From Clostridia bacterium (GTDB lineage Bacteria; Bacillota; Clostridia; Christensenellales; CAG-138): DNA of 64,000 nucleotides. This document shows positions 35,467-58,293 of the stretch, in pieces. The position numbers and the translations under genes are program-made. The notes beneath the pieces are model-generated. The model was not told where the DNA came from and searched no databases. It saw nothing but the letters and a program-made list of their open reading frames with translations. The DNA lies in assembly GCA_045603585.1 (NCBI GenBank), contig JAZUMK010000012.1, forward strand, positions 5,176 through 69,175, in the 5' to 3' direction. The first letter of the stretch is position 1. Every line of letters starts with the position of its first letter.

Positions 35467-35480
35467 AGGAGGCTTTGTCT

Positions 35481-37144: not shown

Positions 37145-38539
37145 ATGCATTTCGACATTATCGTAATAGGCGGCGGCCCCGGTGGTTATGTAACCGCCAT
37201 CCGCGCCGCACAGCTGGGCAAAAACGTTGCCCTTATAGAGCGTGAAAGAGTTGGCGGCACCTGCCTGAACCACGGCTGCATCCCCACCAAGACCCTGTAT
37301 CGTTCCGCAGAGGTCATGAATATCATCGCCGAAGCTGAAAAGTACGGCGTTGCCGCAGCTGCCGCTTCCGTTTCCGCTGAAGGCGTACGCGCCCGCAAGG
37401 AACAGGTAGTTAACCAGCTTACCTCCGGCGTTGCTTCCCTGCTGAAGGGCAATGGCGTAACCGTTATCACCGGCGAAGCCTCCATCGGCAAGGACAAGAC
37501 CGTTACCGCAGCAGGCGAAAGCTACACTGCCGACCACATCATCATCGCGACCGGCAGCAAGACCGCCCGCCTCCCCGTTCCCGGCATTGACCTGCCCGGC
37601 GTAATGGGCAGCACCGAAGCTCTGGCTCTGGAAGAGATCCCCCAGAGCCTGGTAATCATCGGCGGCGGCGTTATCGGCGTGGAAATGGCCGGTATTTACA
37701 AGGCATTCGGCTCCGAGGTAACCATCGTTGAATTCCTTCCCGCAGTGCTGTCCACTCTGGATGGCGAGCTGTCCAAGTTTGCCGCAAAGCGCCTTGCCGC
37801 TCAGGGCATAAAGGTTCTCACCGGCGCCAAGGTCACCTCCATCGAGGGCGACAAGGGCAACATGGTAGTTACCGCCGAAACCGGCGAAGGCACCGTTGCC
37901 ATCCCCTGCACCCACGTTCTCAACGGCGCAGGCCGTACCCCTTGCATCGACGGTCTCGGCATTGAAGAAGCCGGCATCGAAATGGATGGCAGAAAGATAA
38001 AGGTAGACGAAAACTACCGCACCAACGTTCCCGGCATCTATGCCATCGGCGATGTTATAGGCGGCGCAATGCTGGCACACGTAGCATCCGACGAAGGCCG
38101 CGTATGCGTAGAGCGCATCTGCGGAATGAGCACCTACGTGGATTACGACATCATCCCCGCCTGCGTATTCGCCTTCCCCGAGCTTGCAAGCGTGGGCAAG
38201 ACCGAAGAGCAGCTCAAGGCCGAGGATGTTAAATACAACGCAGCCCGCTTTGCCTTTTCCGGCAACGGCAAGGCCCTGAGCCTTGGCGAAACCGAGGGTC
38301 TCGTAAAGATAATCGCTTCCGAGGATCTCCGCTCCATTCTGGGCGTACACATCGCAGGTCCCCACGCAAGCGACCTTATCCATGAGGCCGTAATCGCCAT
38401 GAAGAGCATGCTCACCGTTGAGGAAGCCGCTCATACCATGCACGCACATCCCAGCCTTGCCGAGGCATTCATGGAGTGCATGCAGCGCCTTATCGGCGAA
38501 GCGATCCACGTTCCCCCTGCAAGACGCCGCGCCAAATAA
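37145..38539 (+). CDS. lpdA: Dihydrolipoyl dehydrogenase E3
   Basis: GGGPGGY, GGTCLNHGCIP, GGGVIG, HAHPSLAE. Confidence 0.95.
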   Translation: MHFDIIVIGGGPGGYVTAIRAAQLGKNVALIERERVGGTCLNHGCIPTKTLYRSAEVMNIIAEAEKYGVAAAAASVSAEGVRARKEQVVNQLTSGVASLLKGNGVTVITGEASIGKDKTVTAAGESYTADHIIIATGSKTARLPVPGIDLPGVMGSTEALALEEIPQSLVIIGGGVIGVEMAGIYKAFGSEVTIVEFLPAVLSTLDGELSKFAAKRLAAQGIKVLTGAKVTSIEGDKGNMVVTAETGEGTVAIPCTHVLNGAGRTPCIDGLGIEEAGIEMDGRKIKVDENYRTNVPGIYAIGDVIGGAMLAHVASDEGRVCVERICGMSTYVDYDIIPACVFAFPELASVGKTEEQLKAEDVKYNAARFAFSGNGKALSLGETEGLVKIIASEDLRSILGVHIAGPHASDLIHEAVIAMKSMLTVEEAAHTMHAHPSLAEAFMECMQRLIGEAIHVPPARRRAK

Positions 38540-38567: not shown

Positions 38568-39878
38568 ATGCAGCGTACAGTAATTCACGGCGGATACCTT
38601 ATGACCCGCAACGGCATAGTTGCCGACAGCGGCGTTATAATCGAAGGAAACCGCATTGCAGCCGCAGGCCCAAACGCCTCTCTCCTTCCCAATGAAGGGG
38701 ACACGGTGATCGATGCTACGGATAAGCTCATTGCTCCCGGCTTTATAAACGGCCATAACCATATGTACGGCATGCTGTCCCACGGCATAACCGTAGAGGC
38801 GCTGGTAACCGAATTTTCCAGCTTCCTTGAGGATTTCTGGTGGCCCTACGTTGAAAACAGGGTAGACCACGATCTGGTCCGCACCACCGCCGCATGGAAC
38901 ATGGTGGAAATGATCGACAGCGGTGTTACCTGCTTCTGCGACATTCTGGAAGCGCCCAACTCCATTCCCGGCGCACTGGAGATCGCAGCGGAAGTGACCG
39001 AGGCCGCCGGTCTCAGAGGCGTTCTCTGCTTCGAAGCCTGCTGCCGCATCAGCGAGGAAAACGGCGCGCTGGGTCTTAAGGAAAACGCTGATTTTATCCG
39101 CAGCCACAATAAGCCCGATTCCACCGTTACCGGCATAATGAGCATACACACCCTGTTCACCTGCCCCGAGGACTATGTTTCCGAGGCAAAGGCCATGGCT
39201 AAGGAACTGGGCGCGGATATCCACATGCATCTCTCCGAGAGCGTTTTCGAACCCACCTGGGTCAAGGAGCATCTCAACAGCACCCCGGTTGAAGTTTACG
39301 ACAAGCTGGGCTACCTTGACGATAAGGTCATCGCCTCCCAGTGCGTACAGCTCAGCCCCGATGAGCTGAAGCTCCTTGCAAAGCGCGGCGTACGCGCAGT
39401 ACACATGCCCCTGTCCAACTGCGAGGTCGGCGGCGGCGTAGCCCCTGTAAGCGATATGCTGGAGCTGGGCATGAAGGTGGGCCTTGGCTCCGACGGCTAT
39501 ATAAACAACTTCTTCGAAATAATGCGCGGAGCATTCCTCATCCCCAAAGCCCATTGGCAGTCCACCACCATAATGCCTGCAAAGGCAGTATATGAACTGG
39601 CCACATGGCGCGGCGCCGAAGCCCTGGGCATTCAGGCCGGCGCCCTGGAAGAGGGACTCCTTGCAGACCTGATCACAATTGATCTGGATACGCCCACCCC
39701 CATCAATCCGGACAATGTATACGATCAGCTGGTACTTTTCCGCAATCCCCAGAACGTTTGCGATGTAATGGTAAACGGCCGCTTCCTCAAGCGCGACCAT
39801 ACCCTGCTCACCGTGGACATACCCAAAGCAAAATCAGACCTCAGGGATGCTGCTCAGCGTTTCTGGTCGGGAAATTAA
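38568..39878 (+). CDS. Amidohydrolase (SsnA / MTA-SAH deaminase-like), copy 1
   Basis: PGFINGHNH, SGVT, HTLF, HLSE, PLSN, GLGSDG; ATG at 38568 after GGAGG. Confidence 0.85.
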   Translation: MQRTVIHGGYLMTRNGIVADSGVIIEGNRIAAAGPNASLLPNEGDTVIDATDKLIAPGFINGHNHMYGMLSHGITVEALVTEFSSFLEDFWWPYVENRVDHDLVRTTAAWNMVEMIDSGVTCFCDILEAPNSIPGALEIAAEVTEAAGLRGVLCFEACCRISEENGALGLKENADFIRSHNKPDSTVTGIMSIHTLFTCPEDYVSEAKAMAKELGADIHMHLSESVFEPTWVKEHLNSTPVEVYDKLGYLDDKVIASQCVQLSPDELKLLAKRGVRAVHMPLSNCEVGGGVAPVSDMLELGMKVGLGSDGYINNFFEIMRGAFLIPKAHWQSTTIMPAKAVYELATWRGAEALGIQAGALEEGLLADLITIDLDTPTPINPDNVYDQLVLFRNPQNVCDVMVNGRFLKRDHTLLTVDIPKAKSDLRDAAQRFWSGN

Positions 39879-39890
39879 GGAGAAAAGAAA

Positions 39891-41102
39891 ATGTTTGATC
39901 CCAAACTTTGCAAAGGCGCAGATATCTCCACCACCTATGCGGGCATAAAGCTCCGCTCCCCCTTCATCCTCAGTTCCGGCCCGCTGGGCTACGGTTCTGA
40001 AGGCCTTATCAGGGCACACAAGGCCGGCTGCGGCGCAGTTGTCACCAAGACCCTCCGCCTCAACAGGGCTATCAACCCCGCCCACCACATCGGCACCATG
40101 GGCCCCAATTCCCTGATAAACTGCGAAAAATGGGCTGACTCCGACAGGCTTCAGTGGTATGAAAAGGAAATCCCCGAAGCCAAAGCCGCAGGCGCAGTGG
40201 TCATCGCATCCGTTGGCCATACTCCCGCCGAAGCCGAAGCGATCGTCGCCGATGCCGAAAAGGCAGGCGCAGATATGCTGGAGCTGGTATCCTATACCGA
40301 GGACACCCTGCTGCCCATGCTCCGCATTGCAAAGAAAAAGGTTAATATTCCTGTTATCTGCAAGCTTTCCGCCAACTGGCCTGATCCTGTTTCCGCAGGT
40401 ATCCGCTGCATGCAGGAAGGCGCAGATGCCCTTTGCGCCATTGACTCCATAGGCCCCGGCCTCAAGATCGATATCAAGAACGCCCGCCCCGAGCTGATGG
40501 GCGCTGACGGCTGCGGCTGGATAAGCGGCGGCGCAATCAAGCCCCAGTCCATGTACATCAACGCTGCCCTTTCCCGCAAGATACCTAACCTTGACATATA
40601 CGGCTCCGGCGGATGCATGAGCGCTGCTGATGCAGTTGAGTTCATCATGGCAGGCTGCCGCGGCGTGGGCTACTGCTCCGCAGGTATCCTCTACGGTATG
40701 GATTATGTGGAAAAGATGTGCTATGAGCTTTCCGCTCTGCTGGCAAAGCTGGGCTATACAAGCCTTGAAGAAGCCAGAGGCGCCGCTCTCGGCAGCTTCC
40801 CCGACAGAGACCTGGTTACCAGGCTGGCATTCGAATACCGTCCCGATGCAGACCCCGCCACCGGCTTCAAGGGCTGCACTCACTGCAACCGCTGCGTAAA
40901 GGCCTGTTGCTATGAGGCAAGAAAGCTGGATGAAACCGGCATGCACGTGGATGCAGACCTGTGCCGCGACTGCGGCGTATGCGTAAGCATCTGCCCCACC
41001 GGTGCTCTCACCGCAACCATGCTGCCCCAGTCCCAGACTGATCTGGACAGGGTTGCCGAAGCAGCTGCCTTTGACGAATACGTAAAGAAGATCAACAGCT
41101 GA
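39891..41102 (+). CDS. Dihydropyrimidine dehydrogenase PreA-like FMN protein with two C-terminal [4Fe-4S] motifs
   Basis: SPFILSSGP, VVTKT, SGGAIKP, GSGG; C-terminal CxxCxxCxxxC twice. The NxSCP loop is absent. Confidence 0.8.
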   Translation: MFDPKLCKGADISTTYAGIKLRSPFILSSGPLGYGSEGLIRAHKAGCGAVVTKTLRLNRAINPAHHIGTMGPNSLINCEKWADSDRLQWYEKEIPEAKAAGAVVIASVGHTPAEAEAIVADAEKAGADMLELVSYTEDTLLPMLRIAKKKVNIPVICKLSANWPDPVSAGIRCMQEGADALCAIDSIGPGLKIDIKNARPELMGADGCGWISGGAIKPQSMYINAALSRKIPNLDIYGSGGCMSAADAVEFIMAGCRGVGYCSAGILYGMDYVEKMCYELSALLAKLGYTSLEEARGAALGSFPDRDLVTRLAFEYRPDADPATGFKGCTHCNRCVKACCYEARKLDETGMHVDADLCRDCGVCVSICPTGALTATMLPQSQTDLDRVAEAAAFDEYVKKINS

Positions 41103-41127
41103 TGCAGTGACTGAAAGGAAGGTAAAT

Positions 41128-42072
41128 ATGTCTCTTCCCCTCCAAGCAATCCAAGCCCGTTGTTCCAGAATACTCAACGACCTTAACGATAACGCCTGCG
41201 CGTACGGCATCGAAGTTTCTTCGATGCCCTGCGGCGCAAAGCTTATGGATGCAGGCATCAATGCTATCGGATCCTATCAGGCAGGCGCTCTGGTAACAGA
41301 ACTCTGTCAGGGTGGTCTGGCTTCCGCATCCATACGCCCCCAGAATCTGGGCAAGCTTCTTCTTCCCCACATCTTTGTAGAAACCTATATCCCCCGCTGC
41401 GCAAATCTCGTTCTGCAGTCTGCACGTCCCTTTGAGGGCGAAATGATATCCGGTCCCATAAAGATGTTCCTGGAAAATGATGTTCCCGATCCCGCCGAAT
41501 GCAGCGCAGCCCTTACCGCTGTTCTGCAGTGCGATAAGTTCCCCTCTGATGAGTGGACAGTAAGCCTCGCAAAGGCCGCAGGCTGCGAACCCGCTCAGCT
41601 TACCCTGGTAGCGGTTCCTCAGGGAAGTGCCGCAGGCAGCACCCAGATCGCAGGCCGCATGAATGAAAACATGCTCTTCACCATGGAAAACTCCCTTGGC
41701 TATGATTCCTCCATGGTTCGCCACATACTGGGCTACTGCCCCATCGGCCCCTACGGCCCCGCTCCCGAAGGCAAGCATCTCCTGCTTCCCGATGACTATC
41801 TCCACTATGCTTCCGGCGCATGCCTTACCATAGACGCCCCCGAGGGACTGGATATCCAGAAGCTGGCCGACGATCTGGCCTTCAATTCCCTCAGCATTTA
41901 CGGCAAGCTGTTCTATGAGCTGCTGGAGCAGGCCGGCTGGGACTTCTTCAAGATCCCCGATGTTATGCACATCAACAAGCTGGCTGAAGTAACCATATGC
42001 GACATCCGCTCCGGCAAAACCGCCGTTGCAGGATGCAAAGATACCGAAATACTCACAAATCAACTTGTATAA
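41128..42072 (+). CDS. Methenyl-H4MPT cyclohydrolase (Mch) homologue 1
   Basis: GAKLMDAGI..GS..AG..TELCQGGL, SGP, P.GSAAGSTQIAGRMNE, YGKLF...AGWDFFKI, EVTICDIRSGK; Mch-like length of about 315 aa. Confidence 0.8.
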   Translation: MSLPLQAIQARCSRILNDLNDNACAYGIEVSSMPCGAKLMDAGINAIGSYQAGALVTELCQGGLASASIRPQNLGKLLLPHIFVETYIPRCANLVLQSARPFEGEMISGPIKMFLENDVPDPAECSAALTAVLQCDKFPSDEWTVSLAKAAGCEPAQLTLVAVPQGSAAGSTQIAGRMNENMLFTMENSLGYDSSMVRHILGYCPIGPYGPAPEGKHLLLPDDYLHYASGACLTIDAPEGLDIQKLADDLAFNSLSIYGKLFYELLEQAGWDFFKIPDVMHINKLAEVTICDIRSGKTAVAGCKDTEILTNQLV

Positions 42073-42090
42073 TTCGAAGGAGGACTCACA

Positions 42091-43179
42091 ATGAAGCGCA
42101 GATTCCTTATCATCACCCTGGTACTCGCCCTCGTACTGACCGCAGTAGGCTGCGGCAGCTCCACCCCTGCTGCTGACGATTCCGGCAGCGGCGAAGGCGG
42201 CTATGCCGATTTCCAGACCGCTATCATGCTGCCCGGTATTGAAGGCGAAAACGCCATCTTCCAGATGATTGCCAGCGGCATCCGCGATGCCTGTGCTGAT
42301 CTTGGCGCTCCCGAACCCAAGGTAGTTGAAGGCGGCGACCAGTGGACCAGCTACGGTAAGTACCTCACCAGCCTTGCCGCTGCAGGTATCTACGACGTAA
42401 TCTTCACCACCACCGACGTTATGCGCTATTGCGTAAACGACACTCTGAAAGTTTATCCCGATCAGAAGATCGTTCTGGTAGACGCAGACCTGCTGAACTA
42501 TGAGTCCAAGTTCGACGGCGGCAAGATCCCCGATACCGTATGGGGCATTTCCTTCGATATGTATCAGCTGGGCTACCTCGGCGGCCACTTCTGCGCTCTC
42601 GTTACCCAGAGCGACATGGAACGCGCCAATCCCGACCTGAAGGTTGGCCTTGTAACCACCGACATTTACGATGCATGGGACGTTGACCTTAAGACCGGCT
42701 TCACCAACGGCGTTAAGGACGTAAACCCCGATATCGAGATCATCACTTCCGTAATCGGCGACTGGGTAGACCCCGCTAAGGGAGCTGCCGTTACCCGCGC
42801 CCTCATCGCTCAGGGTGTTGACATCGTTTACTACACCAGCGGCGCATCCGCATACGGCTGCGTAACCGAAGCCGAAGCCCAGAACTGCTACGCTATCCCC
42901 CACGACAACAACTCCATCTCCCTGGCTCCCGGCACCATCATCGGCGCTTCTCTGGTTCAGGGCTATGATGCAGCTTACAGTGCCGCCAAGGGCGCAATCG
43001 AAGGCACTCTGGAATACGGCACCGGCCGCAGGGCAGGCGTAGCTGAAGACGTAATCGCCTTCACCACCGATGATCCCACTTACCTCGAAACCGTTTCCGA
43101 AGACATCCGTGCCGCCATGGATGCCGCTCTCCAGGGCCTTGCCGATGGCAGCATCGATGCCCGCAGACCCATTGCATAA
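42091..43179 (+). CDS. BMP-family (nucleoside-type) ABC substrate-binding lipoprotein
   Basis: Lipobox AVGC; GYLGG, GFTNGVKDVNPD, GDWVDPAKG, QGVDIVY. Confidence 0.85.
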   Translation: MKRRFLIITLVLALVLTAVGCGSSTPAADDSGSGEGGYADFQTAIMLPGIEGENAIFQMIASGIRDACADLGAPEPKVVEGGDQWTSYGKYLTSLAAAGIYDVIFTTTDVMRYCVNDTLKVYPDQKIVLVDADLLNYESKFDGGKIPDTVWGISFDMYQLGYLGGHFCALVTQSDMERANPDLKVGLVTTDIYDAWDVDLKTGFTNGVKDVNPDIEIITSVIGDWVDPAKGAAVTRALIAQGVDIVYYTSGASAYGCVTEAEAQNCYAIPHDNNSISLAPGTIIGASLVQGYDAAYSAAKGAIEGTLEYGTGRRAGVAEDVIAFTTDDPTYLETVSEDIRAAMDAALQGLADGSIDARRPIA

Positions 43180-43220
43180 TTTAACTCCCTACCAAACCGC
43201 TATTTAAAAGGAGACATTAT

Positions 43221-44789
43221 ATGTCCGATTATTTGTGCATGCGGGGCATCACAAAGACCTATCAGGCCTATGGCCGTGAGGTCCGTGCCCTGAAAAACGT
43301 GGATTTCTCCGTTCGCCGCGGCACTGTACACGGTTTGCTGGGCGAAAACGGTGCAGGTAAATCCACCCTTATGAAAATACTGTCCGGCGTAGAGCGCATG
43401 GACAGCGGTACCGTCACCTTCAACGGCCAGGAAGTAACCCTGGGCAATGCCATGCAGGCTCAGAAGCTGGGCATCGGCATGGTTCATCAGCACTTCTCCC
43501 TCATCGATGACTATACCGTTGCAGAAAACGTGGTTCTGGGCATGGAGCCCACCAAGAAGCTCGGTTTCGTTGACCTTAAAGCTCAGCGTGCGGCCGCCGA
43601 AGAAGCTGCAAGACAGTGCGGCTTCACCATCGACCTGGACCGCAAGGTAGGCACGCTCTCCATGGGTGAACGCCAGAAGGTTGAGATCATGCGCGTCGTA
43701 TTCAGCAAGGCCGACCTGCTGATATTCGACGAGCCCACTTCCGTTCTGGTAGAGCAGGAGATCCAGGGCCTGCTGGACACCATCAGGCTGCTCAAGGAAA
43801 ACGGAAAGACCATCATTTACATCAGCCACAAGGTTGAAGAGGTTATTTCCATAACCGACGATCTGACTGTTCTTCGCGACGGCGAGTCCGTCCGTACCGA
43901 CAAGACCGCCGCAGTTGACGCTGCTGAGATCATCCGCATGATGGTAGGCCAGACCCTTTCCCTCCATCTGGATAAGACTCCCGCCAACCCCGGCAACATC
44001 GTTCTTCAGGCCAATAACCTCTGGGTCAAGAACGGCCTGCTGGATGCGGTAAAGCACGTAAGCTTTACCGTCCGCTCCGGCGAAATCGTAGCCATTGCCG
44101 GTATAAACGGCAACGGCCAGCCCGAGCTTCTGGAAGTTCTCTTCGGTCTGCGCAAGGCCGATAAGGGCAGCATCCGCCTGATGGGCAAGGATATCACCAA
44201 CCTTACCCCCCAGAAGCGCAGAGATGCAGGCATGAGCTATGTTCCCGAAGACCGTATCCACGTGGGTTCCTGCGCCACTGCCAGCGTATCCGAAAACCTG
44301 CTGGTAGACCGCCGCAGCAAGGAGCCTTACAGCAAGCACGGCTTCCTCAAGGCAAAGCCTCTGTCTGACCTCAGCAAGCAGCTCATAGACCAGTACAGCA
44401 TCAAGGTAAGCGGTGAAAACCACATCGTCGGCGCTCTTTCCGGCGGTCACATTCAGCGCACCATACTGGCTCGCGAGCTTTCTGCCAACCCCAAGGTGCT
44501 GCTGGCAAGCGAAGTTACCATGGGTCTTGACGTTCTGAGCACCCGCTACGTCCACGAGACCATGCTGCAGCTCAGGGATCAGGGTCTTGGCATACTGCTG
44601 GTATCCAGTAATATCAACGAGATCCTTGCTCTGGCTGACAGGATCCTGGTCATCCATGACGGCGCCCTCACCGCCTCCTTTGTAAACGATGACATGATAA
44701 CCCGTGAGGAAATCGGCGAATATATGCTCGGTATTAAGTTCATGACTGAACTTACCCGCGGATCGGAGGATGACGATGCAGCGGTCTAA
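43221..44789 (+). CDS. Nucleoside ABC ATP-binding protein (NupA/YufO-like)
   Basis: GENGAGKST, GMVHQHF, FDEPT, VPEDR, LSGG. Confidence 0.9.
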   Translation: MSDYLCMRGITKTYQAYGREVRALKNVDFSVRRGTVHGLLGENGAGKSTLMKILSGVERMDSGTVTFNGQEVTLGNAMQAQKLGIGMVHQHFSLIDDYTVAENVVLGMEPTKKLGFVDLKAQRAAAEEAARQCGFTIDLDRKVGTLSMGERQKVEIMRVVFSKADLLIFDEPTSVLVEQEIQGLLDTIRLLKENGKTIIYISHKVEEVISITDDLTVLRDGESVRTDKTAAVDAAEIIRMMVGQTLSLHLDKTPANPGNIVLQANNLWVKNGLLDAVKHVSFTVRSGEIVAIAGINGNGQPELLEVLFGLRKADKGSIRLMGKDITNLTPQKRRDAGMSYVPEDRIHVGSCATASVSENLLVDRRSKEPYSKHGFLKAKPLSDLSKQLIDQYSIKVSGENHIVGALSGGHIQRTILARELSANPKVLLASEVTMGLDVLSTRYVHETMLQLRDQGLGILLVSSNINEILALADRILVIHDGALTASFVNDDMITREEIGEYMLGIKFMTELTRGSEDDDAAV

Positions 44790-45855
44790 ACAAACTCTTT
44801 TTCAGCTGTTGGTAATACTGTCCGGCCTTATAATGGCAGTAGTGGTTATACTGCTCTGCTCCAGTGAGCCCGGCATTGCCCTCAAGTTCTTTTTCACCGG
44901 CCCCTTCTCCAGCCAGTTCTTCCTTGGCGACATGATCAACACCGCGGTGCCTCTCATCATCTGCGGTCTTGCGGCAAGCGTATCCTTTACCGCTTCCGTA
45001 TGGAACCTGGGTCTTGAAGGCATGGTTTATTTCGGCATGCTCACCGGCACCATGGCCGGCGTATGGATGGAAGGCTGGCCCGCAGCCGTTGCGATCCCCC
45101 TGATGTTTGTCGCAGCCTTCGTTGGCGGCGCAGCACTTTCTCTGCTGTGCAATTTCTTCCGCCGCCGCTTCAACGTAGATATCATGATGAGCTCCCTCAT
45201 GATCGCAAACGTGATATTCTACCTTGTCATGATGCTGGTCGAAGGCCCCTTCAGGGATATGGATTCCGGTCAGGGCGTTACCACTGCCATGATCCCCGAA
45301 GCATTCCAGTTCCCCAATCTGCTGGCTGCTTCCGAGCTGAATGCAACCCTATTCATAGCCATTGCCCTTACGGCCATCATGTACTTCTGTCTGCGCCGCA
45401 CCAAGGTTGGCTATGAGATCCGCATAACCGGCGAAAACCCCTCCTTTGCCGCTTACGGCGGAATCAGCACCCTTGCTGTTGCAAGCCTTGCTATGATCCT
45501 CTCCGGCGGTCTGGGCGGCGTTGGCGGCCTCAGCTATGTACTGTGCACCTCCAATCGCGTCCGCAATCAGCTTTGCGGTATCGGCTGGAGCGGCCTTTCC
45601 ATCGCAATGATCAGCCGCAACAACCCCCTGCTGGTGCTGCCTGTATCCCTGTTCTTCGCCTATCTTACCAAGGGCGCTGAATGTGCGGCCCTCTTTGCCG
45701 ACATCACCCCCGACGTGGCGCAGATCATCCAGGGCGCGATCCTGCTGCTGGTTACCAGCGAAAAGCTCATCAGCACCCTTTCCGGCAGCAACAGGAAAAA
45801 GAAAAAGGCCGCTGTTAAGCCCAAGGCCGAAGAAACCAAGGAGGTGGCAGAGTAA
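44770..45855 (+). CDS. Nucleoside ABC permease (NupB/YufP-like)
   Basis: PLIICGL..WNLGLEG, GYEIRITGENP. Confidence 0.87.
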   Translation: MTMQRSKQTLFQLLVILSGLIMAVVVILLCSSEPGIALKFFFTGPFSSQFFLGDMINTAVPLIICGLAASVSFTASVWNLGLEGMVYFGMLTGTMAGVWMEGWPAAVAIPLMFVAAFVGGAALSLLCNFFRRRFNVDIMMSSLMIANVIFYLVMMLVEGPFRDMDSGQGVTTAMIPEAFQFPNLLAASELNATLFIAIALTAIMYFCLRRTKVGYEIRITGENPSFAAYGGISTLAVASLAMILSGGLGGVGGLSYVLCTSNRVRNQLCGIGWSGLSIAMISRNNPLLVLPVSLFFAYLTKGAECAALFADITPDVAQIIQGAILLLVTSEKLISTLSGSNRKKKKAAVKPKAEETKEVAE

Positions 45856-46772
45856 TGAACGAATTCATCGGTGGCGCTCTTTATACCATCATTGCCTATG
45901 GCACCCCTTTGATCCTGTGCTCTCTGGGCGGACTGATGACCGGCCTTTCCGGCCGCTTCAATCTGGGTATGGAAGGTATGATGCTTTTCTCTGCCTTCTT
46001 CTCCCTCTATTTTGCAAACCTGTTCAACAACCTTATTCTGGGTCTGGTTATCGGCGTGCTGATCACCGTACTCATCGGCCTGTTCATGGCCTTCATGAGC
46101 CTCAGGTTTGATGTTGACATTTACATCGTAGGTATGGCCATCAATACCCTCGGTACCGGCCTTACCACCTTCCTGATTTTCCTGCTTACCGGCGCTCAGG
46201 GTTCCATTATCTACCCTGATGCTCCCCGGCTGGAAAATCTTACCACCCCCATTATCTCCAACATACCCTACCTCAACCAGATACTCAGCAACCACACGGT
46301 TCTTGATTATCTCACCATAGTTCTGGTAATCGTCATGTACGCCGTCATCTTCAAGACCGCTTACGGACGCAGGCTCAGGGCTGTGGGTATGAGCGAATGG
46401 GTAGCCTCTGCCCGCGGTATATCCGTTGACCGTATGATCTACTCCTCCTATGCTCTGTGCGGCCTGTTCTGCGGCCTTGCCGGCGCATCCCTGTCCCTCT
46501 CTCAGGGCATTTTCGTAGGCGGTTTCACCGGAATGACCAACGGCCGCGGCTGGCTGGCCATGGCTCTGGTAATAGTTGCCCAAAACAACCCTTACACCAT
46601 TCTGGTGTTCTCCTGGGCGCTGGGCCTGCTTTCCGCCCTTGGCGATATTCTCCAGACCACCGGCAATTTCTCTGCCCGCGTGGTTCAGATGCTTCCCTTC
46701 TTTGGCGCCCTTGCAGCAGCTGCAATTTACTCCCTGCGCATGGCCCGCAAAGAAAAATCCACCAAGATTTAA
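45855..46772 (+). CDS. Nucleoside ABC permease (NupC/YufQ-like)
   Basis: TPLILCSLGG..SGRFNLGMEG, GMTNGRGWLAMA. Confidence 0.87.
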   Translation: MNEFIGGALYTIIAYGTPLILCSLGGLMTGLSGRFNLGMEGMMLFSAFFSLYFANLFNNLILGLVIGVLITVLIGLFMAFMSLRFDVDIYIVGMAINTLGTGLTTFLIFLLTGAQGSIIYPDAPRLENLTTPIISNIPYLNQILSNHTVLDYLTIVLVIVMYAVIFKTAYGRRLRAVGMSEWVASARGISVDRMIYSSYALCGLFCGLAGASLSLSQGIFVGGFTGMTNGRGWLAMALVIVAQNNPYTILVFSWALGLLSALGDILQTTGNFSARVVQMLPFFGALAAAAIYSLRMARKEKSTKI

Positions 46773-46791
46773 TGAATAGAGGGCTAACCCT

Positions 46792-48102
46792 ATGACATTA
46801 TTGATTCAGAATATCAGTTACCTCATAGTAAACTCCGGCACAGTGCTGAAGGATGTTGATCTGCTTATTGAAAACGGCCGCATCTCCTCCTTCGGCAAGG
46901 ACCTGAAGGTTCCTGCCGATGCAGAAATCGTAGACGGCAGCGGTCAGGCCATTATGCCCGGCTTTGTAAATGCTCACACCCATCTGTGGCAGATGACCAT
47001 CAAGGGAAGGCGGGATGATCTTCCCCTGAGCACCTGGTGCGACGAAGTTCTTACCCCCACCATCAACGCCCTCTATGCAGAAGAGGATCCCGCAGTTAAG
47101 GAGCGCCGCAGCTATCTGTGGACCGCTCTGGGCATCTGCGACATGCTCCACAGCGGCGTAACCGCATTTGTGGATATGGACCTTAACTACCGTCAGGACG
47201 GTATGTTCAAGGCCGCAGAGGATGCCGGTATCCGCGGTTTCTTCGGCATTGAGCTTGCAGATTACTTCATGGACGGCTCCATCAACAGCGATGCTCTGGA
47301 AGTGGTAAGGCTGATCAACGACCATCCCGGCCAGTGCGTACTCACCCCCTCCGAGCTGAATATCTGCACCGATGACACTCTGTCCTTTGTGGCAGAAGCG
47401 GCAAGGGGCAACAACGTTCACGTTCAGATCCACGTGGACGAGACCGAAGCCGAGGCCAAGCAGTCCGTTGCCCAGCGCGGCGCAGCTGAGCTGCTGTACC
47501 TTGATAAATTCGGTCTGCTGGACGGCAGCTTCTCCGCTGTACACGGCATCCACCTCTCCAAGAAGGAAATGGAGCTTGCCGCAAAGAAGGACATCACCGT
47601 TGTTTACAATCCCAAGAGCAACATGAAGCTTGGCAGCGGCGTATGCCCCATCAGGGAGCTGCTTGATGCCGGCATCAACGTGGCTCTGGCCACCGACGGC
47701 CCCGCATCCAACGACATACTGGATATGTTCGAAGAAATGCGTATGGGCGCAATGCTCCAGAAGGTATCCGCAAAGGACGCTTCCGCCGTTCTTGCAAAGG
47801 ATGTATTTGACATGGCCACCGCAGGCGGCGCACACATGCTCAACATCGATGCAGGCAGCCTGGAAGCCGGCCGCTATGCCGACTTTATCGTTATCCCCAT
47901 GGATAAGCCCAACCTTATCAGCGATGGCAGCGACCTGATCAGCACCATCGTATACTGCGCTCAGTCCCGCGACGTTAAGGACGTATACATCGGCGGTAAG
48001 CCCGTTGTAAAGGACTACAACATTGTAAACCTTGACGAAGCTGCCCTTACCGCAGAATTCATGAAGCACATGGCAGCTATTAAGGAGGTTACCAATGTTT
48101 AG
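46792..48102 (+). CDS. Amidohydrolase (MTA/SAH deaminase-like), copy 2
   Basis: PGFVNAHTH, SGVT, HVDET, VHGIH, NPKSNMKLGSG, ATDGPASN. Confidence 0.87.
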   Translation: MTLLIQNISYLIVNSGTVLKDVDLLIENGRISSFGKDLKVPADAEIVDGSGQAIMPGFVNAHTHLWQMTIKGRRDDLPLSTWCDEVLTPTINALYAEEDPAVKERRSYLWTALGICDMLHSGVTAFVDMDLNYRQDGMFKAAEDAGIRGFFGIELADYFMDGSINSDALEVVRLINDHPGQCVLTPSELNICTDDTLSFVAEAARGNNVHVQIHVDETEAEAKQSVAQRGAAELLYLDKFGLLDGSFSAVHGIHLSKKEMELAAKKDITVVYNPKSNMKLGSGVCPIRELLDAGINVALATDGPASNDILDMFEEMRMGAMLQKVSAKDASAVLAKDVFDMATAGGAHMLNIDAGSLEAGRYADFIVIPMDKPNLISDGSDLISTIVYCAQSRDVKDVYIGGKPVVKDYNIVNLDEAALTAEFMKHMAAIKEVTNV

Positions 48103-49063
48103 TCTAAGCCAGCAGACCGTAGAACTTATCGAAAAAGAAATACGCCCCCGTCTGTGGGAGCTCAACTGCGAAGAACACCGTCTGGAAAGCGGCGCCCTGG
48201 TAATCGATATGGGCGTTAACGTTCCCGGCAGCTGGGAAGCAGGCAGGCTGTTTACTCTGGTTACCCTTGGCGCTCAGGGCGAAGTGACCTTCGGCACCAT
48301 GCAGGTAGGCGATCATGAGATCCCCAGCGTAAACGTATATCTCGCCCGTCCCCATGAGGCAGCGCTTTCCGCCCAGTTCTCCGCATGGAAGGTTGCCCCC
48401 TCCGGCGAATACAATCTGCCCGGCTTCGCATCCGGTCCTGCCCGCGCCATCTCTTACGATGACAGCATTGCAAGGATGTGGCCCTATCGGGACAAATACG
48501 AAAAGACGGTTCTTGCAGTACAGACCGCAGAACTGCCCGGCGAAGAGCTGGTTGCAGACGTTGTTGCAAAGTGCGGCGTAAAGCCCGAAAACGTATACCT
48601 GCTGGCAGCAAAGACCGGCAGCCTTGTAGGCGGTATTCAGATCGCCGCCCGTATGGCAGAGGTTTCCCTGTGGGGTCTTGGCTTCTTTGGCTTCCCCCTC
48701 GAGAAGGTTCTCTCCTTCAGCGGCAGCGGCGCTGTTCCTCCCGTGATCAGCGATGAGCTGATCGCTATGGACAGAGTAAACAGCTCTACCCTGTACGGCT
48801 CTGTTGCAAGGTATGTTGTGGATTGCGACGATGATGAGATCCATGCCGTGATCCCCCGCCTGGCCTGCGCCAATACCGCTCACTACGGCAAGACCTTTGC
48901 CGAGCTTTACGATGCGGCTGACAGGGATATCTTCAAGATGGATCTGGATGTGCATAAGGTATCCGTGATCGAGATCACCAACCTGCGCACCGGACGCACC
49001 TTCAAACAGGGCAATATCTGCCCCGAAATGCTGCTCAAGAGCTTTTACGAAAATACTCTTTAA
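48095..49063 (+). CDS. Methenyl-H4MPT cyclohydrolase (Mch) homologue 2
   Basis: GALVIDMGV..GSWEAG, Q..AW, SGPARA, TGSLVGGIQIAARMAE, AMDRVN..LYG, YGKTF...DIFKMD, TGRTF. Confidence 0.85.
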   Translation: MFSLSQQTVELIEKEIRPRLWELNCEEHRLESGALVIDMGVNVPGSWEAGRLFTLVTLGAQGEVTFGTMQVGDHEIPSVNVYLARPHEAALSAQFSAWKVAPSGEYNLPGFASGPARAISYDDSIARMWPYRDKYEKTVLAVQTAELPGEELVADVVAKCGVKPENVYLLAAKTGSLVGGIQIAARMAEVSLWGLGFFGFPLEKVLSFSGSGAVPPVISDELIAMDRVNSSTLYGSVARYVVDCDDDEIHAVIPRLACANTAHYGKTFAELYDAADRDIFKMDLDVHKVSVIEITNLRTGRTFKQGNICPEMLLKSFYENTL

Positions 49064-49075
49064 AGGGTGATTTTT

Positions 49076-50224
49076 ATGACAGAACGTAAATTTGATGTTG
49101 CAGTGGTTGGCGGCGGCGTAGTAGGCGCTGCCGCTGCCTGGAAGCTCAGCAAGGCCGGAGCAAAGGTAGTCCTCATCGAAAAGGACGACCTTTGCGCAGG
49201 TGCATCCTGCACCAACCCCGGCTTCTGCGTGCTCAGCTACAGGGAAAATCCCCTTGTAATGGATATGGCTCTGCGTCAGCAGGCCCAGTGGGATGCCCTT
49301 GTAAGCGAAATAGGCGATGTGGAATACAATCCCTCCGGTGGACTTATTCCCCTTACCGATTCTGCTCAGCAGGGCATACTGGAAGGCCTCTGCAAGCACG
49401 TGAAGGGCATGGGTCTGAGCGATATCCACATGATAACCGCTGAAAAGGCCAAGGAGCTGGAGCCTGAACTGGATGCAAGCAAGCTGGTAGGCGCCTGCTG
49501 GTGTCCCGGCGAAGGCCGTCTGAATCCCTTCAAGCTCAACCTTAACATGGCGGACAGGGCAGTTGCTCTGGGCGCCACCGTTATGACCCATACCGCCGTT
49601 ACCGGCCTCAGGATGAATAACGGCATTGTTGAGGCAGTTGAAACCACCAACGGCGACGTATTTGCAGACCTTGTGATTCTCTGCGGCGGCGCATGGACAA
49701 GGGATCTTGCAGCCATGGCGGGCCATGATCTGCCCATATTTTATGAGCGCGGCGAAGCCATGGTAAGCATGCAGGTGCGCCCCACCATCAAGCGCATGAT
49801 AACCGACGGCGCCCTGTTCAATCAGCCCCTTACCGATGACCATCCCATGGTAATAGGCGCATGTCTGGGCCAGACACACAGCGGCAATATAGTAATTGCC
49901 CAGGCTACATCCCGCCCGGGCAACTATGATAAGTCCAATACTCTGGAAGGTATGAAGGGCGTAGCAAACAGGGTAATCTCCCTGTTCCCCAGCCTGAAGG
50001 ATATTGATATCATCCGTATGTGGTCCGGTCTGGTATCCTACGCCGCGGATAAGGATCCTGTATTCGGCGCATTTGACAGCCCCAAGAACCTGTTCATCGC
50101 CAACTCTTTCCACAGCGCGATAGCTCTGTCTCCCTCAATAGGCGACATGATCGCAGATTACTGGAAGAACGGCACCATACCCGAAGCCGCCAAGGGATAC
50201 ACCCCCATGCGCTTCTGCAAGTAA
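49076..50224 (+). CDS. FAD-dependent amine/amino-acid oxidoreductase (DAO / HcnC / SoxB family)
   Basis: VVGGGVVG, LIEK, GAS, NP, GAW, RMWSG. Confidence 0.87.
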   Translation: MTERKFDVAVVGGGVVGAAAAWKLSKAGAKVVLIEKDDLCAGASCTNPGFCVLSYRENPLVMDMALRQQAQWDALVSEIGDVEYNPSGGLIPLTDSAQQGILEGLCKHVKGMGLSDIHMITAEKAKELEPELDASKLVGACWCPGEGRLNPFKLNLNMADRAVALGATVMTHTAVTGLRMNNGIVEAVETTNGDVFADLVILCGGAWTRDLAAMAGHDLPIFYERGEAMVSMQVRPTIKRMITDGALFNQPLTDDHPMVIGACLGQTHSGNIVIAQATSRPGNYDKSNTLEGMKGVANRVISLFPSLKDIDIIRMWSGLVSYAADKDPVFGAFDSPKNLFIANSFHSAIALSPSIGDMIADYWKNGTIPEAAKGYTPMRFCK

Positions 50225-50231
50225 ATAACGC

Positions 50232-51602
50232 TTAATTCTGCTGGGTACTTCTGAGGAACTTTCCCTCGGGGCTGCCCAGCAGTTTTCCGTTTTCAGCGGC
50301 CAGTTCGCCCCTGAGATACACCCTGCGCACAGTACAGCCCACAGGATATCCCTCAAAGATGGTATAGCCTGCGTTGCTGTGCTCTTCTTTTGCGGTAATT
50401 ACTCTGGGGGCATTGGGGTCCATAAGCAGTATATCCCCATCACTGCCCACGGCAATTGCACCTTTTTGGGGATAAATGCCATGCCTTTTTGCCGCTTCTG
50501 CGGAAAGCCTGTCGGCAAGCTGTTCAAGGGTAAGTCTGCCCTTCTGATAGCCCTCTGAGAACATGAGCGAAGGCATGCTTTCGCAGCCGCCCACGCCGGG
50601 CAGCACGTCAAAGCAGCTGTCTGCCCTCATCTTCTGCTCAATGGTGTAAGGACAATGGTCGGTGGATATCATGCCGATATCACCGTTTATCACATGCTGC
50701 CACAGCCTGCTGCAGTCATCGGCCTTTCTCAGGGGAGGAGTCATTATGTATTTCTGGGGCTCGCTGCCCTCGTAGCAGCTGTCGGTAAGCAGCAGATAAT
50801 GGGGGCAGGTTTCAGCATACACCTTTACGCCCTGTTTGCGCGCCTCGGCAACAAGGTCTGCTCCGTCTCCGGAGGATACATGGGCAATTATCAGCTGAAC
50901 GCCGGTCTTTTCCGCCACCCGGATCAGCTCCTTTACCGCTGCAGCTTCCGCTGCGGCAGGACGGCTTTCGCCATGGCGCCCGGCACCCACTCTGCCCTCA
51001 GCGATAAAGTCCTGCTTTATCCGGGCTATCATGTCGTCATCCTCGCAGTGTGCAAGAATGGACATGCCCAGCTTTGCGGCATTTGAAAACAGCCTTTCCA
51101 TATCCTCACTGGGGAATTTATCCGCGCCGTATGTGGTGTATATCTTGAGTACGCTGATACCCTCGGCAGCAATATCTTCAAGCCTGTCGATATCCTGATA
51201 AAATGCTCCGGTAACCTCCATATGCAGGGCGTAATCGGCATAAGTGCTGCCATCGGCCTGGGCTTTTCTTGCATTTACGCCGTCGGCCCAGCTTTTTTCG
51301 GGCAGAGGGCTTGCAAAGTCCACAAATGTGGTTATTCCGCCGCATACGGCCACTGCAGAGCCCGCACCAAAGTCATCGGCGTTAAATCCGCCGTCAGGAG
51401 TGGGGATCTGAAAATGCACGTGGGAATCAATGGCTCCCGGCAGGGCGATAAGACCGCTTGCATCAAAGAAGTCGCAGCCTTCCGGGGATATTCCCTTCTC
51501 TATGCGGCATATTTTGCCCTCGGATATAAGTATATCGGTATTCACCGCTCCGCCGGGAGTAACCGCCGTTGCGTTTTGAATGAGTACAGGTTTTTTATGC
51601 AT
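50232..51602 (-). CDS. Dihydropyrimidinase / hydantoinase (HydA/HyuA family)
   Basis: PGAIDSHVH, GGITT, candidate carboxylated Lys (LKIY), AHCED, AHVS, ETCPHYL, PPLR, STDH; start at 51602. Confidence 0.9.
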   Translation of the reverse strand: MHKKPVLIQNATAVTPGGAVNTDILISEGKICRIEKGISPEGCDFFDASGLIALPGAIDSHVHFQIPTPDGGFNADDFGAGSAVAVCGGITTFVDFASPLPEKSWADGVNARKAQADGSTYADYALHMEVTGAFYQDIDRLEDIAAEGISVLKIYTTYGADKFPSEDMERLFSNAAKLGMSILAHCEDDDMIARIKQDFIAEGRVGAGRHGESRPAAAEAAAVKELIRVAEKTGVQLIIAHVSSGDGADLVAEARKQGVKVYAETCPHYLLLTDSCYEGSEPQKYIMTPPLRKADDCSRLWQHVINGDIGMISTDHCPYTIEQKMRADSCFDVLPGVGGCESMPSLMFSEGYQKGRLTLEQLADRLSAEAAKRHGIYPQKGAIAVGSDGDILLMDPNAPRVITAKEEHSNAGYTIFEGYPVGCTVRRVYLRGELAAENGKLLGSPEGKFLRSTQQN

Positions 51603-51665
51603 TTTTGTCACCCTCCTTACCGCTTCATTATACGACATAAAGCCGCTGTAACGCCACATAATTCG

Positions 51666-51749
51666 AACTTGCACAAATGTGTAATTTGTCATATGGCACA
51701 AGTATTTATTGCGTATTGATTGATTTAAACCCTGCCAATTTTATATAAT
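51666..51749. promoter_or_regulatory. Candidate operator copy 2 and promoter of the xdh-like operon
   Basis: AACTTGCACAAATGTGTAA (palindrome TTGCACA-aa-TGTGTAA), adjacent TTGT-N8-ACAA (51686-51701), TTGATT-18-TATAAT (51720-51749). Confidence 0.6.
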
Positions 51750-54153: not shown

Positions 54154-54162
54154 GAGGGCAAT

Positions 54163-55038
54163 ATGAGAGAATTTTCCTACGTAAGACCCAAAACTCTTGA
54201 CGAGGCCCTGGAGCTTATGCAGCTTCACGCAGGCAGCATCCGCCCCTATGCAGGCGGTACCGACATAATGGTACACCTGAGAGCAGGCAGCGCAAGATTT
54301 GACAACCTGGACTATATGATGGACCTTGGCGACCTTCAGGAGCTTAAGGGCGTTACTTACGAAAACGGCACCGTAACCGTTGGCGCAATGGTCTCTCATG
54401 AGTGCGTATCCCATCACCCCATCGTACTGGAGCATGCTCCCATGCTGGCTCAGGCCTGCCACACCGTAGGCGCAACCCAGATCCGCAATGCCGGTACCAT
54501 CGGCGGCAACGTCTGCAATGCTTCCATCGCAGCAGACAGCCTTTCTCCCCTTGCTGCCATGGATGCCGTATGCAACCTGCAGAGCAAGACCGCAAGCCGC
54601 AGCATTCCTCTCGCCCAGTTTATCACCGGATCCGAGAAGACCTGTATCCAGCCCGATGAGCTGCTGGTAAGCATCAGCTTCCCCTCCTTCAAGGAATGGA
54701 ACACCGCTTTCTTCAAGCTGGGCCGCAGGCGCGCGCTGGCCATCTCCAGAATAACCGCCTCCACCGCCCTTCGCGTTGTGGATGGAAAGATAGCAGAAGC
54801 CCGCATCGCCCCCGGCTGCGTATTCGTATCCCCCAGGCGCTGCACCGCGGCTGAAGATATGCTCAAGGATAAGGAACCCTCTCTGGCCCTGTTCAACGCA
54901 GTAGGCGAAGAGGTGGCAAACGAAATGGTGGCCGTAACCGGCGTACGCTGGAGCACAGAGTACAAGCAGCCTGTTCTTGCAAGCGTTGTAAGCAGCGCAC
55001 TCTGCATGGCAGCAGGCATATCTATGGAGGAAAAATAA
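54163..55038 (+). CDS. XDH-family FAD subunit
   Basis: AGGTD, QIRNAGTIGGN, ADS, KLGRR. Confidence 0.92.
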   Translation: MREFSYVRPKTLDEALELMQLHAGSIRPYAGGTDIMVHLRAGSARFDNLDYMMDLGDLQELKGVTYENGTVTVGAMVSHECVSHHPIVLEHAPMLAQACHTVGATQIRNAGTIGGNVCNASIAADSLSPLAAMDAVCNLQSKTASRSIPLAQFITGSEKTCIQPDELLVSISFPSFKEWNTAFFKLGRRRALAISRITASTALRVVDGKIAEARIAPGCVFVSPRRCTAAEDMLKDKEPSLALFNAVGEEVANEMVAVTGVRWSTEYKQPVLASVVSSALCMAAGISMEEK

Positions 55039-55549: not shown

Positions 55550-55591
55550 ACGTATCAGGATAATTTATAAAAAGTATTGGAGGTACTTATT

Positions 55592-58291: not shown

Positions 58292-58293
58292 TC

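Follow-up and report, generated by a model that had tools for sequence, protein, structure and literature searches.

Two divergent Mch-family paralogues in a purine-catabolic gene island of a Clostridia bacterium

The Mch1 and Mch2 genes

The stretch of DNA analysed here (the window; 64,000 nucleotides, G000:C12:5176-69175) comes from the genome of a Clostridia bacterium (G000; 2.04 Mb in 63 contigs, 90.7% complete), and contains two + strand genes of the methenyl-tetrahydromethanopterin cyclohydrolase (Mch) family. Mch1 (41128-42072) encodes a divergent family member of 314 amino acids with the motif QIAGRMNE at 41644-41667, while Mch2 (48095-49063) encodes a protein of 322 amino acids, nearer canonical Mch, with QIAARMAE at 48638-48661. 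Both are true MCH-fold proteins in which the Arg/Glu motif is intact, and they lie in a conserved island of purine- and nucleoside-catabolic genes, in a genome in which no genes for tetrahydromethanopterin (H4MPT) synthesis were found.

A preliminary description of the window, made from the sequence alone, had recognized two Mch-family open reading frames (ORFs) from end to end, and profile searches bear this out. Pfam MCH (PF02289; cut-off 25 bits) matches Mch1 with 167 bits over profile positions 3-309 of 311 and Mch2 with 281.4 bits over positions 1-311 of 311, and these are the only MCH matches in a genome-wide search of G000. The NCBIfam equivalog TIGR03120 (cut-off 228.8 bits) is narrowly exceeded by Mch2 (242.0 bits) and missed by Mch1 (144.3 bits). 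The two proteins are 27% identical. The motif coordinates in that description are correct, and the altered segments it quoted (LQSARPF and LLPDDYLHY in Mch1, AQFSAW and MDRVNSSTLY in Mch2) are present in the alignment.

Residues 1-317 of Mch2 align with the solved M. kandleri Mch (1qlm; E 3.5e-49), and Mch1 aligns with 4fio (E 2.2e-31). An AlphaFold (AF2) model of Mch1 built from a 98-row alignment reached a pLDDT of 96.4 and a pTM of 0.93. When this model was searched against the PDB with Foldseek, the matches at E <= 0.001 were six chains of four Mch entries (4fio, 1qlm, 4gvq and 4gvr; TM 0.82-0.86), and the next match followed at E 0.15. The fold of Mch2 was assigned by its sequence match to solved Mch, its single-sequence AlphaFold model being unusable (pLDDT 37.6). 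The motif residues are Q173, R177 and E180 in Mch1 and Q182, R186 and E189 in Mch2. In the alignment all three are kept in nine of nine Mch2-clade rows, 12 of 12 Mch1-clade rows and at least 23 of the 25 other paralogue rows. The Arg/Glu pair of this Q-I-x-x-R-x-x-E motif is reportedly catalytic, from work on the A. fulgidus Mch.

Both genes are under purifying selection. Compared with a genome of the same genus (G141), the ratio of nonsynonymous to synonymous substitution rates (dN/dS) is 0.064 for each gene, and between two genomes of another genus (G170 and G176) the Mch pair gives 0.078 and 0.164. The value of 0.064, together with the conserved synteny described below, rules out chance ORFs or decaying genes. 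Long − strand ORFs of 603 to 1130 amino acids opposite this region (41092-42903, 48104-50113, 52003-55395 and 55565-58153) were also considered and rejected as genes. They shadow well-supported + strand genes, the one that was scanned for families gave no match, and they are a by-product of composition.

The sequence is present in animal gut, feces, bovine and wildlife metagenomes from 12 studies, which is taken as an indication of general habitat only. Metatranscriptome contigs from two runs of one study cover Mch1 at 41206-41489 and the Mch2 region at 48586-48829 and 47647-48180; DNA carry-over is possible, and these contigs are not counted as transcription, just as no meaning is attached to uncovered stretches. 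A database protein of 387 amino acids (P0024), 67% identical to Mch2, matches Pfam MCH and the start of the DAO family, a combination that may reflect read-through between, or fusion of, neighbouring Mch2 and DAO genes in a different assembly.

The surrounding island and the adjoining Fhc operon

From 33.5 kb to the window end the genes form one block, which takes in all the + strand genes and a single one on the − strand. The block opens with E1 alpha (33508-34485) and E1 beta (34489-35466) of a thiamine pyrophosphate (TPP)-dependent 2-oxoacid dehydrogenase of the pyruvate/acetoin type (Pfam E1_dh, Transket_pyr and Transketolase_C). E1 alpha scores 331 bits against the pyruvate dehydrogenase (PDH) E1 alpha model TIGR03182, under the cut-off of 394. 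An E2 acyltransferase with two lipoyl domains (35475-37127; 2-oxoacid_dh, Biotin_lipoyl in two stretches, E3_binding) and an E3 dihydrolipoyl dehydrogenase (37145-38539; Pyr_redox_2, Pyr_redox_dim) follow. Between these genes and Mch1 lie AH1, an SsnA-like amidohydrolase of the ATZ/TRZ type (38568-39878; Amidohydro_1; 259.5 bits against SsnA PRK07203, under the cut-off of 444), and a PreA/PydA/UacX-like flavin reductase with two [4Fe-4S] motifs (39891-41102; DHO_dh and Fer4 families; 155.8 bits against PreA NF006183, under cut-off). UacX is itself given as a PF01180 protein in the main text of PMC12507026.

The Mch pair was previously described as flanking a nucleoside ABC transporter and a deaminase, and the intervening genes fit that description. 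The nucleoside-type importer (42091-46772) consists of a Bmp/PnrA binding protein (42091-43179; Bmp), an ATPase (43221-44789; ABC_tran in two stretches) and two BPD_transp_2 permeases (44770-45855 and 45855-46772). It is followed by AH2, a deaminase-type amidohydrolase (46792-48102; Amidohydro_1, 205 bits). The nearest solved chains of AH2 are 3lnp, 4dyk, 4f0r (5-methylthioadenosine/S-adenosylhomocysteine (MTA/SAH) deaminase) and TM0936, and among known enzymes it is closest to the MTA/SAH/adenosine deaminase group.

Downstream, a DAO-family amine oxidoreductase dependent on flavin adenine dinucleotide (FAD) begins 4 bases after Mch2 (49067-50224; DAO, 209 bits), with 1y56_B, the glycine oxidase 4ysh and dimethylglycine dehydrogenase as its nearest solved chains. 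The − strand gene of the block is a HyuA-like D-hydantoinase/dihydropyrimidinase (50232-51701), which passes the TIGR02033 cut-off (395.3 against 393.25 bits). Next is a first enzyme of the xanthine dehydrogenase (XDH) family (51832-55500), with Mo (51832-54153; MoCoBD_1/2, Ald_Xan_dh_C), FAD (54163-55038; FAD_binding_5, CO_deh_flav_C) and [2Fe-2S] (55039-55500; Fer2_2, Fer2) components. An energy-coupling factor (ECF) transporter occupies 55577-59109, with an S component (55577-56578; ECF_trnsprt), a double ATPase (56579-58291; ABC_tran in two stretches) and a T component (58294-59109; CbiQ). The block then continues with a ribokinase-like PfkB-family kinase (59111-60007; PfkB; 143 bits against ribokinase TIGR02152, under cut-off) and a YgeY-family M20 hydrolase (60012-61199; NF009555, 446.6 bits over a cut-off of 321). 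It ends with a second XDH-family enzyme (61228-63977), composed of [2Fe-2S] (61228-61701; Fer2_2, Fer2) and Mo (61626-63977; MoCoBD_1/2) parts and scoring 557 bits against XdhA NF043082, under the cut-off of 780.

The preliminary description had also reported that the Mch genes stand without one-carbon (C1) or H4MPT genes, including Ftr. This is correct inside the 64-kb window. However, a − strand operon begins ~30 bases after the last base of the window, and the premise of missing C1 partners fails because Ftr/Fhc genes are found within about 4 kb beyond it. The single FTR match of G000 (C12:73517-73939) lies about 3.9 kb past the window end, on the contig that carries Mch2 and 18.8 kb downstream of that gene. 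The operon contains five genes, given here by rising coordinate, against the direction of transcription. The first encodes an ATP-grasp glutamate ligase (best match MptN, 246 bits, under the cut-off of 350 but over a RimK-family cut-off). A short FwdC/FhcC-like GXGXG protein (74 bits, under cut-off), an FwdA/FhcA-like amidohydrolase (385 bits, just short of its cut-off of 393) and a degenerate FhcB-like protein of 275 amino acids with a faint FwdB match (22 bits) follow. The last is Ftr/FhcD itself, over both NCBIfam cut-offs at 374 and 362 bits. The bacterial ligase adjoining fhc is identified as MyfB, a methylofuran polyglutamate ligase, in PMC8141765. Given the linkage of Ftr/Fhc genes to the Mch pair, formyl chemistry has probably been kept, and a salvaged H4MPT-like cofactor may be its carrier.

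Beyond the Fhc operon (L004:10203-14855) lie genes for a DeoC aldolase, a SorC/DeoR-type regulator, a Zn-dependent alcohol dehydrogenase and ABC permeases. The conservation of the DeoC and SorC genes beside Ftr in relatives is a hint that the substrate contains a sugar or deoxyribose moiety. Four genomes encode a divergent Ftr-like paralogue (FTR 82-95 bits, FTR_C partial; L045:9507-10433, L046:9583-10452 on the − strand, L047:9944-10807 and L048:9733-10617). Its gene belongs to a conserved operon whose other members encode an FGGY sugar kinase, an ATZ/TRZ-type amidohydrolase, Zn-dependent alcohol dehydrogenases, a DeoC-like aldolase and an ECF transporter, and it seems to represent a second H4MPT-pathway fold recruited elsewhere.

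MCH was found in 11 of 201 genomes sampled from the same family. The island was compared by tblastn of the window proteins in seven of the MCH-bearing genomes of this family, with G015 as an eighth. The island genes occur in the same order in all seven fetched relatives; the Fhc operon is adjacent in five of these, and in the other two the contig ends first. In the compact form of G170, the order is E1, E2, E3, Mch1, AH2, Mch2, DAO, hydantoinase, XDH, ligase, FhcA and Ftr. In G015, Ftr, FhcB-like, FhcA, FhcC and ligase genes are located directly beside DAO, AH2, the ABC importer, Mch1 and E2. Mch1 is kept there, but DAO adjoins AH2 (L028:9826-12347) and Mch2, which is present in all other relatives, is gone. 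Mch1 always follows the E2/E3 genes, either directly or behind AH1 and the reductase, and Mch2, where present, is always found between AH2 and DAO. A wider sample of 401 Bacillota genomes includes 30 with MCH and 16 with FTR; FTR is found in 15 of the 30 MCH-positive genomes, as against one of the 371 MCH-negative ones.

Cofactor synthesis genes, divergence and paralogues

Profile searches of G000, at its 90.7% completeness, found no Mtd, Mpt_N (MtdA/B), ribofuranosylaminobenzene 5'-phosphate (RFAP) synthase, Fae, MfnB or Mer. RFAP synthase was likewise found in none of five further MCH-bearing relatives, four with the island and one a single-contig genome. Elsewhere in the phylum the situation is different. 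In some Bacillota, an Mch of 400+ bits is encoded within 2 kb of Ftr, in a canonical operon of FhcA, Ftr, FhcC, Mch and ligase. RFAP synthase is located next to the operon in three of the five Bacillota checked, which are the three with such Mch-Ftr pairs. The genes flanking the G547 operon encode an Mpt_N dehydrogenase, MfnB, CitG and more ATP-grasp proteins. Complete methylotroph-style H4MPT modules in other Bacillota families (L035:4679-18912; L036; L037; L043), in which FhcA, Ftr, FhcC, Mch and ligase genes have an MtdA/B-type dehydrogenase, MfnB, CitG and RFAP synthase close by, serve here as a positive control. Since the searches are positive in other Bacillota, the methods used are able to detect H4MPT synthesis genes in this phylum. 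Firmicutes are already listed among the phyla with H4MPT-linked genes, with a methylotroph-type module, in the survey by Chistoserdova 2016 (PMC5020050). The island shares the Fhc-Mch module but not the synthesis genes, and was therefore descended from or assembled out of a genuine H4MPT module.

The components of that module differ in how far they have diverged. Island Ftr is 51-53% identical to the Ftr proteins of canonical Bacillota, which share 55-61% with each other (G547, G358 and G287). For the ATP-grasp ligase, the corresponding values are 40% and 40-44% (G395 included, G358 not compared), and for FhcA they are 33-39% and 47-55% (G395 included). The Mch proteins are more distant: against a mutual identity of 46-47% among canonical Bacillota Mch, Mch2 has 32-34% and Mch1 has 27-30%. 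In a canonical set of six methanogens (from two orders) and four Bacillota, 81 columns are conserved in at least nine of the ten sequences; Mch2 keeps 46 of these and Mch1 keeps 43. The canonical Bacillota rows, when left out, keep 77/95, 77/89, 77/95 and 64/99 columns.

At canonically conserved positions, 27 changes are fixed in the Mch2 clade, compared with 16 in that of Mch1. These include the SQxAGW segment, in which A-G has become S-A in Mch2 and the G-W pair has been lost in Mch1. The GRxND segment is altered in both, with G and D changed in Mch2 and N replaced by D in Mch1. An R117 to K change is fixed in the Mch1 clade, and an E to Q change is common to all Clostridial paralogues. The otherwise invariant D38 and G40 vary among Mch1 orthologues, each being kept in 4 of 12.

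A phylogeny that included archaeal Mch (152 rows, quick IQ-TREE) places Mch1, Mch2 and the methanogen Mch in separate clades. Of 149 representatives, 110 were kept by length, and fragments of fewer than 290 aligned residues and near-identical G141 rows were left out. A 47-row clade (SH-aLRT 100) unites Mch2 and its orthologues with every other Mch2-like paralogue from these genomes. Its description as Clostridial rests on its labelled members, namely the relatives' genomes and sequences whose source names are Oscillospiraceae, Lachnospiraceae, Christensenellaceae and Pseudoflavonifractor; the MCH of the last falls in a different sub-clade. The Mch1 orthologues form a separate 12-row clade on a long branch (SH-aLRT 100), and the methanogen Mch have a clade of their own (SH-aLRT 99). 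Mch1 and Mch2 come from separate clades, both of them old and each with fixed substitutions of its own, a pattern that would suit the two specificities proposed for them in the preliminary description.

Several of these genomes contain more than two MCH genes, with about eight full-length copies in G015 and five in G007. At three loci, an extra Mch-DAO pair is found with an ECF transporter, an Amidohydro_2 protein, a Pyr_redox_2 flavoprotein and an AH2-like gene, and other paralogues lie beside Bmp-ABC importers, FMN reductases and XDH. Most of the extra MCH operons are without any Ftr, and no FTR match was found in five small genomes of one genus that have 2-3 MCH genes each. Some of these five carry an operon of a further type, Mch-E1-E2-Mch.

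In G419, G283, G475 and G270, from four other Bacillota families, this operon consists of Mch, E1 alpha, E1 beta, E2 and Mch, sometimes with a third Mch. A GntR/FCD regulator and a short-chain dehydrogenase (SDR) usually precede it, and an FMN reductase often follows. In G015, G007 and G096, from the same family as G000, Mch stands directly before E1-E2(-E3) and no second Mch comes after. Operons of these two forms are at L039:9469-15582, L040:8064-14656, L041:3580-10612 and L042:8147-13583, and also in L023, L031 and L033. We know of no explanation for MCH-fold proteins wired to a TPP/lipoyl complex. Partial MCH proteins of ~230-240 amino acids, which cover only profile positions 164-248 (56 bits) and are conserved across genomes, adjoin full-length Mch paralogues (L025:9175-9873, L027:9020-9736, L032:9126-9749, L033:10841-11578, L040:14669-15391 and L041:10609-11325). 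These could be half-Mch partners or decayed copies.

Proposed function and alternatives

A close catabolic counterpart of the island is the reductive uric acid/2,8-dioxopurine pathway (PMC12507026; bioRxiv 10.1101/2025.04.24.650524). As outlined in the main text of PMC12507026, its set comprises an XdhD-type XDH, a YgfK or UacX reductase, SsnA, HyuA, YgeY, YgeW or UacY, and YgeX, and the pathway ends in pyruvate, a product that would fit the PDH-like complex of the island. Two XDH enzymes are present in the island, with a UacX-like reductase beside an SsnA-like protein, both under their equivalog cut-offs, and with HyuA-type and YgeY proteins over theirs. YgeX (diaminopropionate ammonia-lyase) was not found in G000 (best match 21 bits). 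From 25587 in the window to ~14.9 kb past its end, the annotated ORFs include no D-aminoacylase-type UacY and no YgeW, and the only PF07969 protein is the FwdA/FhcA-like one. The end of the urate pathway is perhaps solved differently here, via the DAO enzyme and the E1-E3 complex. In contrast to the published pathway, the island also has Mch, DAO, AH2 and Fhc genes, and the main texts of both papers make no mention of methanopterin, Mch or formyltransferase. The neighbourhood tables of PMC12507026 colour any PF07969 neighbour as UacY, and could already hold FhcA-like neighbours of SsnA.

The reading favoured here, held with slightly less than even confidence, is that Mch1 and Mch2 are amidine ring-opening hydrolases of purine/nucleoside catabolism whose N-formyl product passes to the Fhc enzymes. 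They would be working MCH-fold hydrolases that have departed from the classical H4MPT pathway, in an anaerobe of the Oscillospiraceae type living in the animal gut. A repurposed catabolic amidine hydrolase had been suggested in the preliminary description; the MCH fold, the motif, the N-heterocycle island and the missing cofactor synthesis genes speak for that suggestion, although its premise of missing C1 partners did not stand. The site chemistry supports water addition to an N-CH=N carbon to yield an N-formyl amine, or the reverse. Substrate, direction and hand-over to the Fhc enzymes are what we infer from the setting. The Gln/Arg/Glu site would add water to the carbon of a cyclic amidine or amidinium, and the ring would open to an N-formyl amine. 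Where purine rings are reduced and hydrolysed, as in this island, C8 and C2 would be the obvious amidine carbons. The likeliest intermediate may be a purine-derived imidazoline or imidazolium ring, reached either through the UacX-like reductase or as a cationic N-alkylated nucleoside. UacX-type dearomatisation could convert a C8-H imidazole to an imidazoline, a close analogue of the methenyl bridge, and N-alkylated nucleosides would bring a ready-made amidinium. The co-inherited Ftr/FhcD-FhcA-FhcC complex would then remove the formyl group as formate. A 5-formamido-pyrimidine product would resemble the head of N5-formyl-H4MPT, which could explain why a little-changed Ftr/Fhc has been retained.

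A comparable scheme is known from GTP cyclohydrolase III (ArfA) with the formamide hydrolase ArfB, and from GTP cyclohydrolases I/II, in which the purine imidazole is opened at C8 to a formamidopyrimidine that is then deformylated. Those enzymes differ from the proteins discussed here in having unrelated folds, metal dependence, a biosynthetic role and GTP as the substrate. The jobs of Mch1 and Mch2 would also differ from each other, the Mch1 clade being tied to E1/E2(/E3) and the Mch2 clade to a sarcosine/glycine-oxidase-like flavoenzyme and an adenosine-type deaminase. Finally, a cofactor-bound C1 pool needs one Mch, so that many paralogues, each with a transporter, point to different small-molecule substrates.

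Several observations weigh against amidine hydrolysis. Mch2 exceeds the Mch equivalog cut-off, and the canonical set against which divergence was judged is small. With G000 only 90.7% complete, the absences of genes fall short of proof. To judge from their sequences, the conservative Ftr and ligase are as compatible with an unchanged formyl-pterin/methylofuran-type substrate as with a look-alike, and the vitamin-type ECF transporter and MyfB/MptN-like ligase of the island could serve cofactor salvage. An alternative, which is less probable but has to be taken seriously, is classical Mch chemistry on a salvaged H4MPT-like pterin and a methanofuran-like carrier, with methenyl converted to formyl and then formate via Mch2 (perhaps also Mch1), Ftr/FhcD, FhcA/C and the ligase. 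Methanogens inhabit animal guts, where the sequence also occurs, and the cofactors would be imported from them, for example by the ECF transporter, which is conserved in the island together with the kinase. The C1 unit would be derived from the compound being broken down, such as an N-methyl or methylene group that DAO oxidises; the nearest relatives of DAO (sarcosine, glycine and dimethylglycine oxidoreductases) are C1-releasing enzymes.

The same genes have much in common with classical systems. Classical Mch (EC 3.5.4.27; methanogens, Archaeoglobus and methylotrophs; 1qlm, 4fio and 4gvq/4gvr/4gvs) has the same Pfam family, two-domain fold, Q-I-x-x-R-x-x-E motif and Ftr/Fhc linkage, but here the setting is purine-catabolic, a genome has between two and eight paralogues, and searches of G000 revealed neither H4MPT synthesis genes nor Mtd, MtdA/B, Mer or Fae. 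The Fhc complex of Methylorubrum extorquens, with its methylofuran prosthetic group (PMC6926001 and PMC8141765), has counterparts here in FhcD/Ftr, FhcA, FhcC, a remnant of FhcB and the MyfB/MptN-like ligase. It differs in that no MfnB for furan synthesis was found in G000, that the FhcB-like protein is degenerate and that the FhcC-like protein is short and under cut-off. The Ftr that passes both equivalog cut-offs, an Ftr and ligase nearly as close to those of canonical Bacillota as the latter are to each other, the ECF transporter and the Mch2 equivalog score keep salvage alive as an explanation. The position of canonical Bacillota Mch between fhcC and the ligase also favours it, marking the module as an old functional unit. 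However, no methylene-H4MPT dehydrogenase of a known kind, Fae or Mer was found in G000, and salvage leaves unexplained both the 27 clade-fixed changes of Mch2 at canonical positions and the spread of 5-8 MCH paralogues in one genome over unrelated operons, which mostly have no Ftr. To our knowledge, no case of H4MPT or methanofuran salvage has been described.

It is also conceivable, though improbable, that Mch1 is a non-catalytic or regulatory partner of Mch2 in a heteromer with only one activity. Mch is a trimer in solved structures, and the pair is on the same contig in many assemblies and in all seven fetched relatives. In other operons, the gene for a partial MCH protein of ~230 amino acids comes after a full-length one, and D38 and G40 are variable in Mch1 orthologues. 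However, Q, R and E are kept in all 12 of those orthologues, Mch1 is under purifying selection, and a distance of 6 kb separates the two genes, whose neighbourhoods differ. The G015 island, with Mch1 but without Mch2, argues weakly against an obligate pair. That these are ordinary Mch proteins of a complete, self-made H4MPT pathway, with its other genes on unassembled parts of the genome, is highly improbable even for an assembly of 63 contigs at 90.7% completeness in a phylum where H4MPT genes are on record (PMC5020050) and were observed here, because RFAP synthase is absent in five of five further MCH-bearing relatives, one of them single-contig, and H4MPT-making Bacillota keep their synthesis genes beside Mch-Ftr where the neighbours here are purine-catabolic.

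Amidine hydrolysis by the Mch pair may be part of a larger picture, although this extension is doubtful. In it, gut Clostridia would have recruited an archaeal-type C1 toolkit (Mch, Ftr and Fhc) off H4MPT to cut C8 or C2 of purines out as formate, acting on UacX-reduced purines or on cationic methylated nucleosides such as 7-methylguanosine and 1-methyladenosine. The MCH fold would have radiated into amidine hydrolases of varied heterocycle specificity, as many as about eight in one genome and often tied to TPP/lipoyl E1-E2, and a third anaerobic purine route would exist beside the xanthinase and 2,8-dioxopurine routes. H4MPT-linked genes in Firmicutes are known, whereas MCH/Ftr paralogues in Clostridial catabolic operons in which no H4MPT synthesis genes are found appear to be new. 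No description of them was found in a literature search from which supplements and subscription journals were left out.

The urate pathway has been understood only since 2025, and the main text of neither paper names Mch, Ftr or Fhc genes. Gut bacterial breakdown of purines and urate affects host urate, according to the abstracts of both (PMC12507026; bioRxiv 10.1101/2025.04.24.650524). A conserved island that joins urate-pathway genes with Mch, Ftr and Fhc homologues, in organisms where no H4MPT synthesis genes were found, suggests an unrecognised branch for formate-level ring carbons. Automatic annotation of these Clostridial genes as methenyl-H4MPT cyclohydrolase can lead gut and rumen surveys to count them as methanogenesis genes, and the recurrent Mch-E1-E2-Mch operons offer a testable entry to an uncharacterised enzyme system. 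The MCH fold is otherwise regarded as not diversified (PMC13156950), and the function proposed here, if true, would be its first outside H4MPT metabolism.

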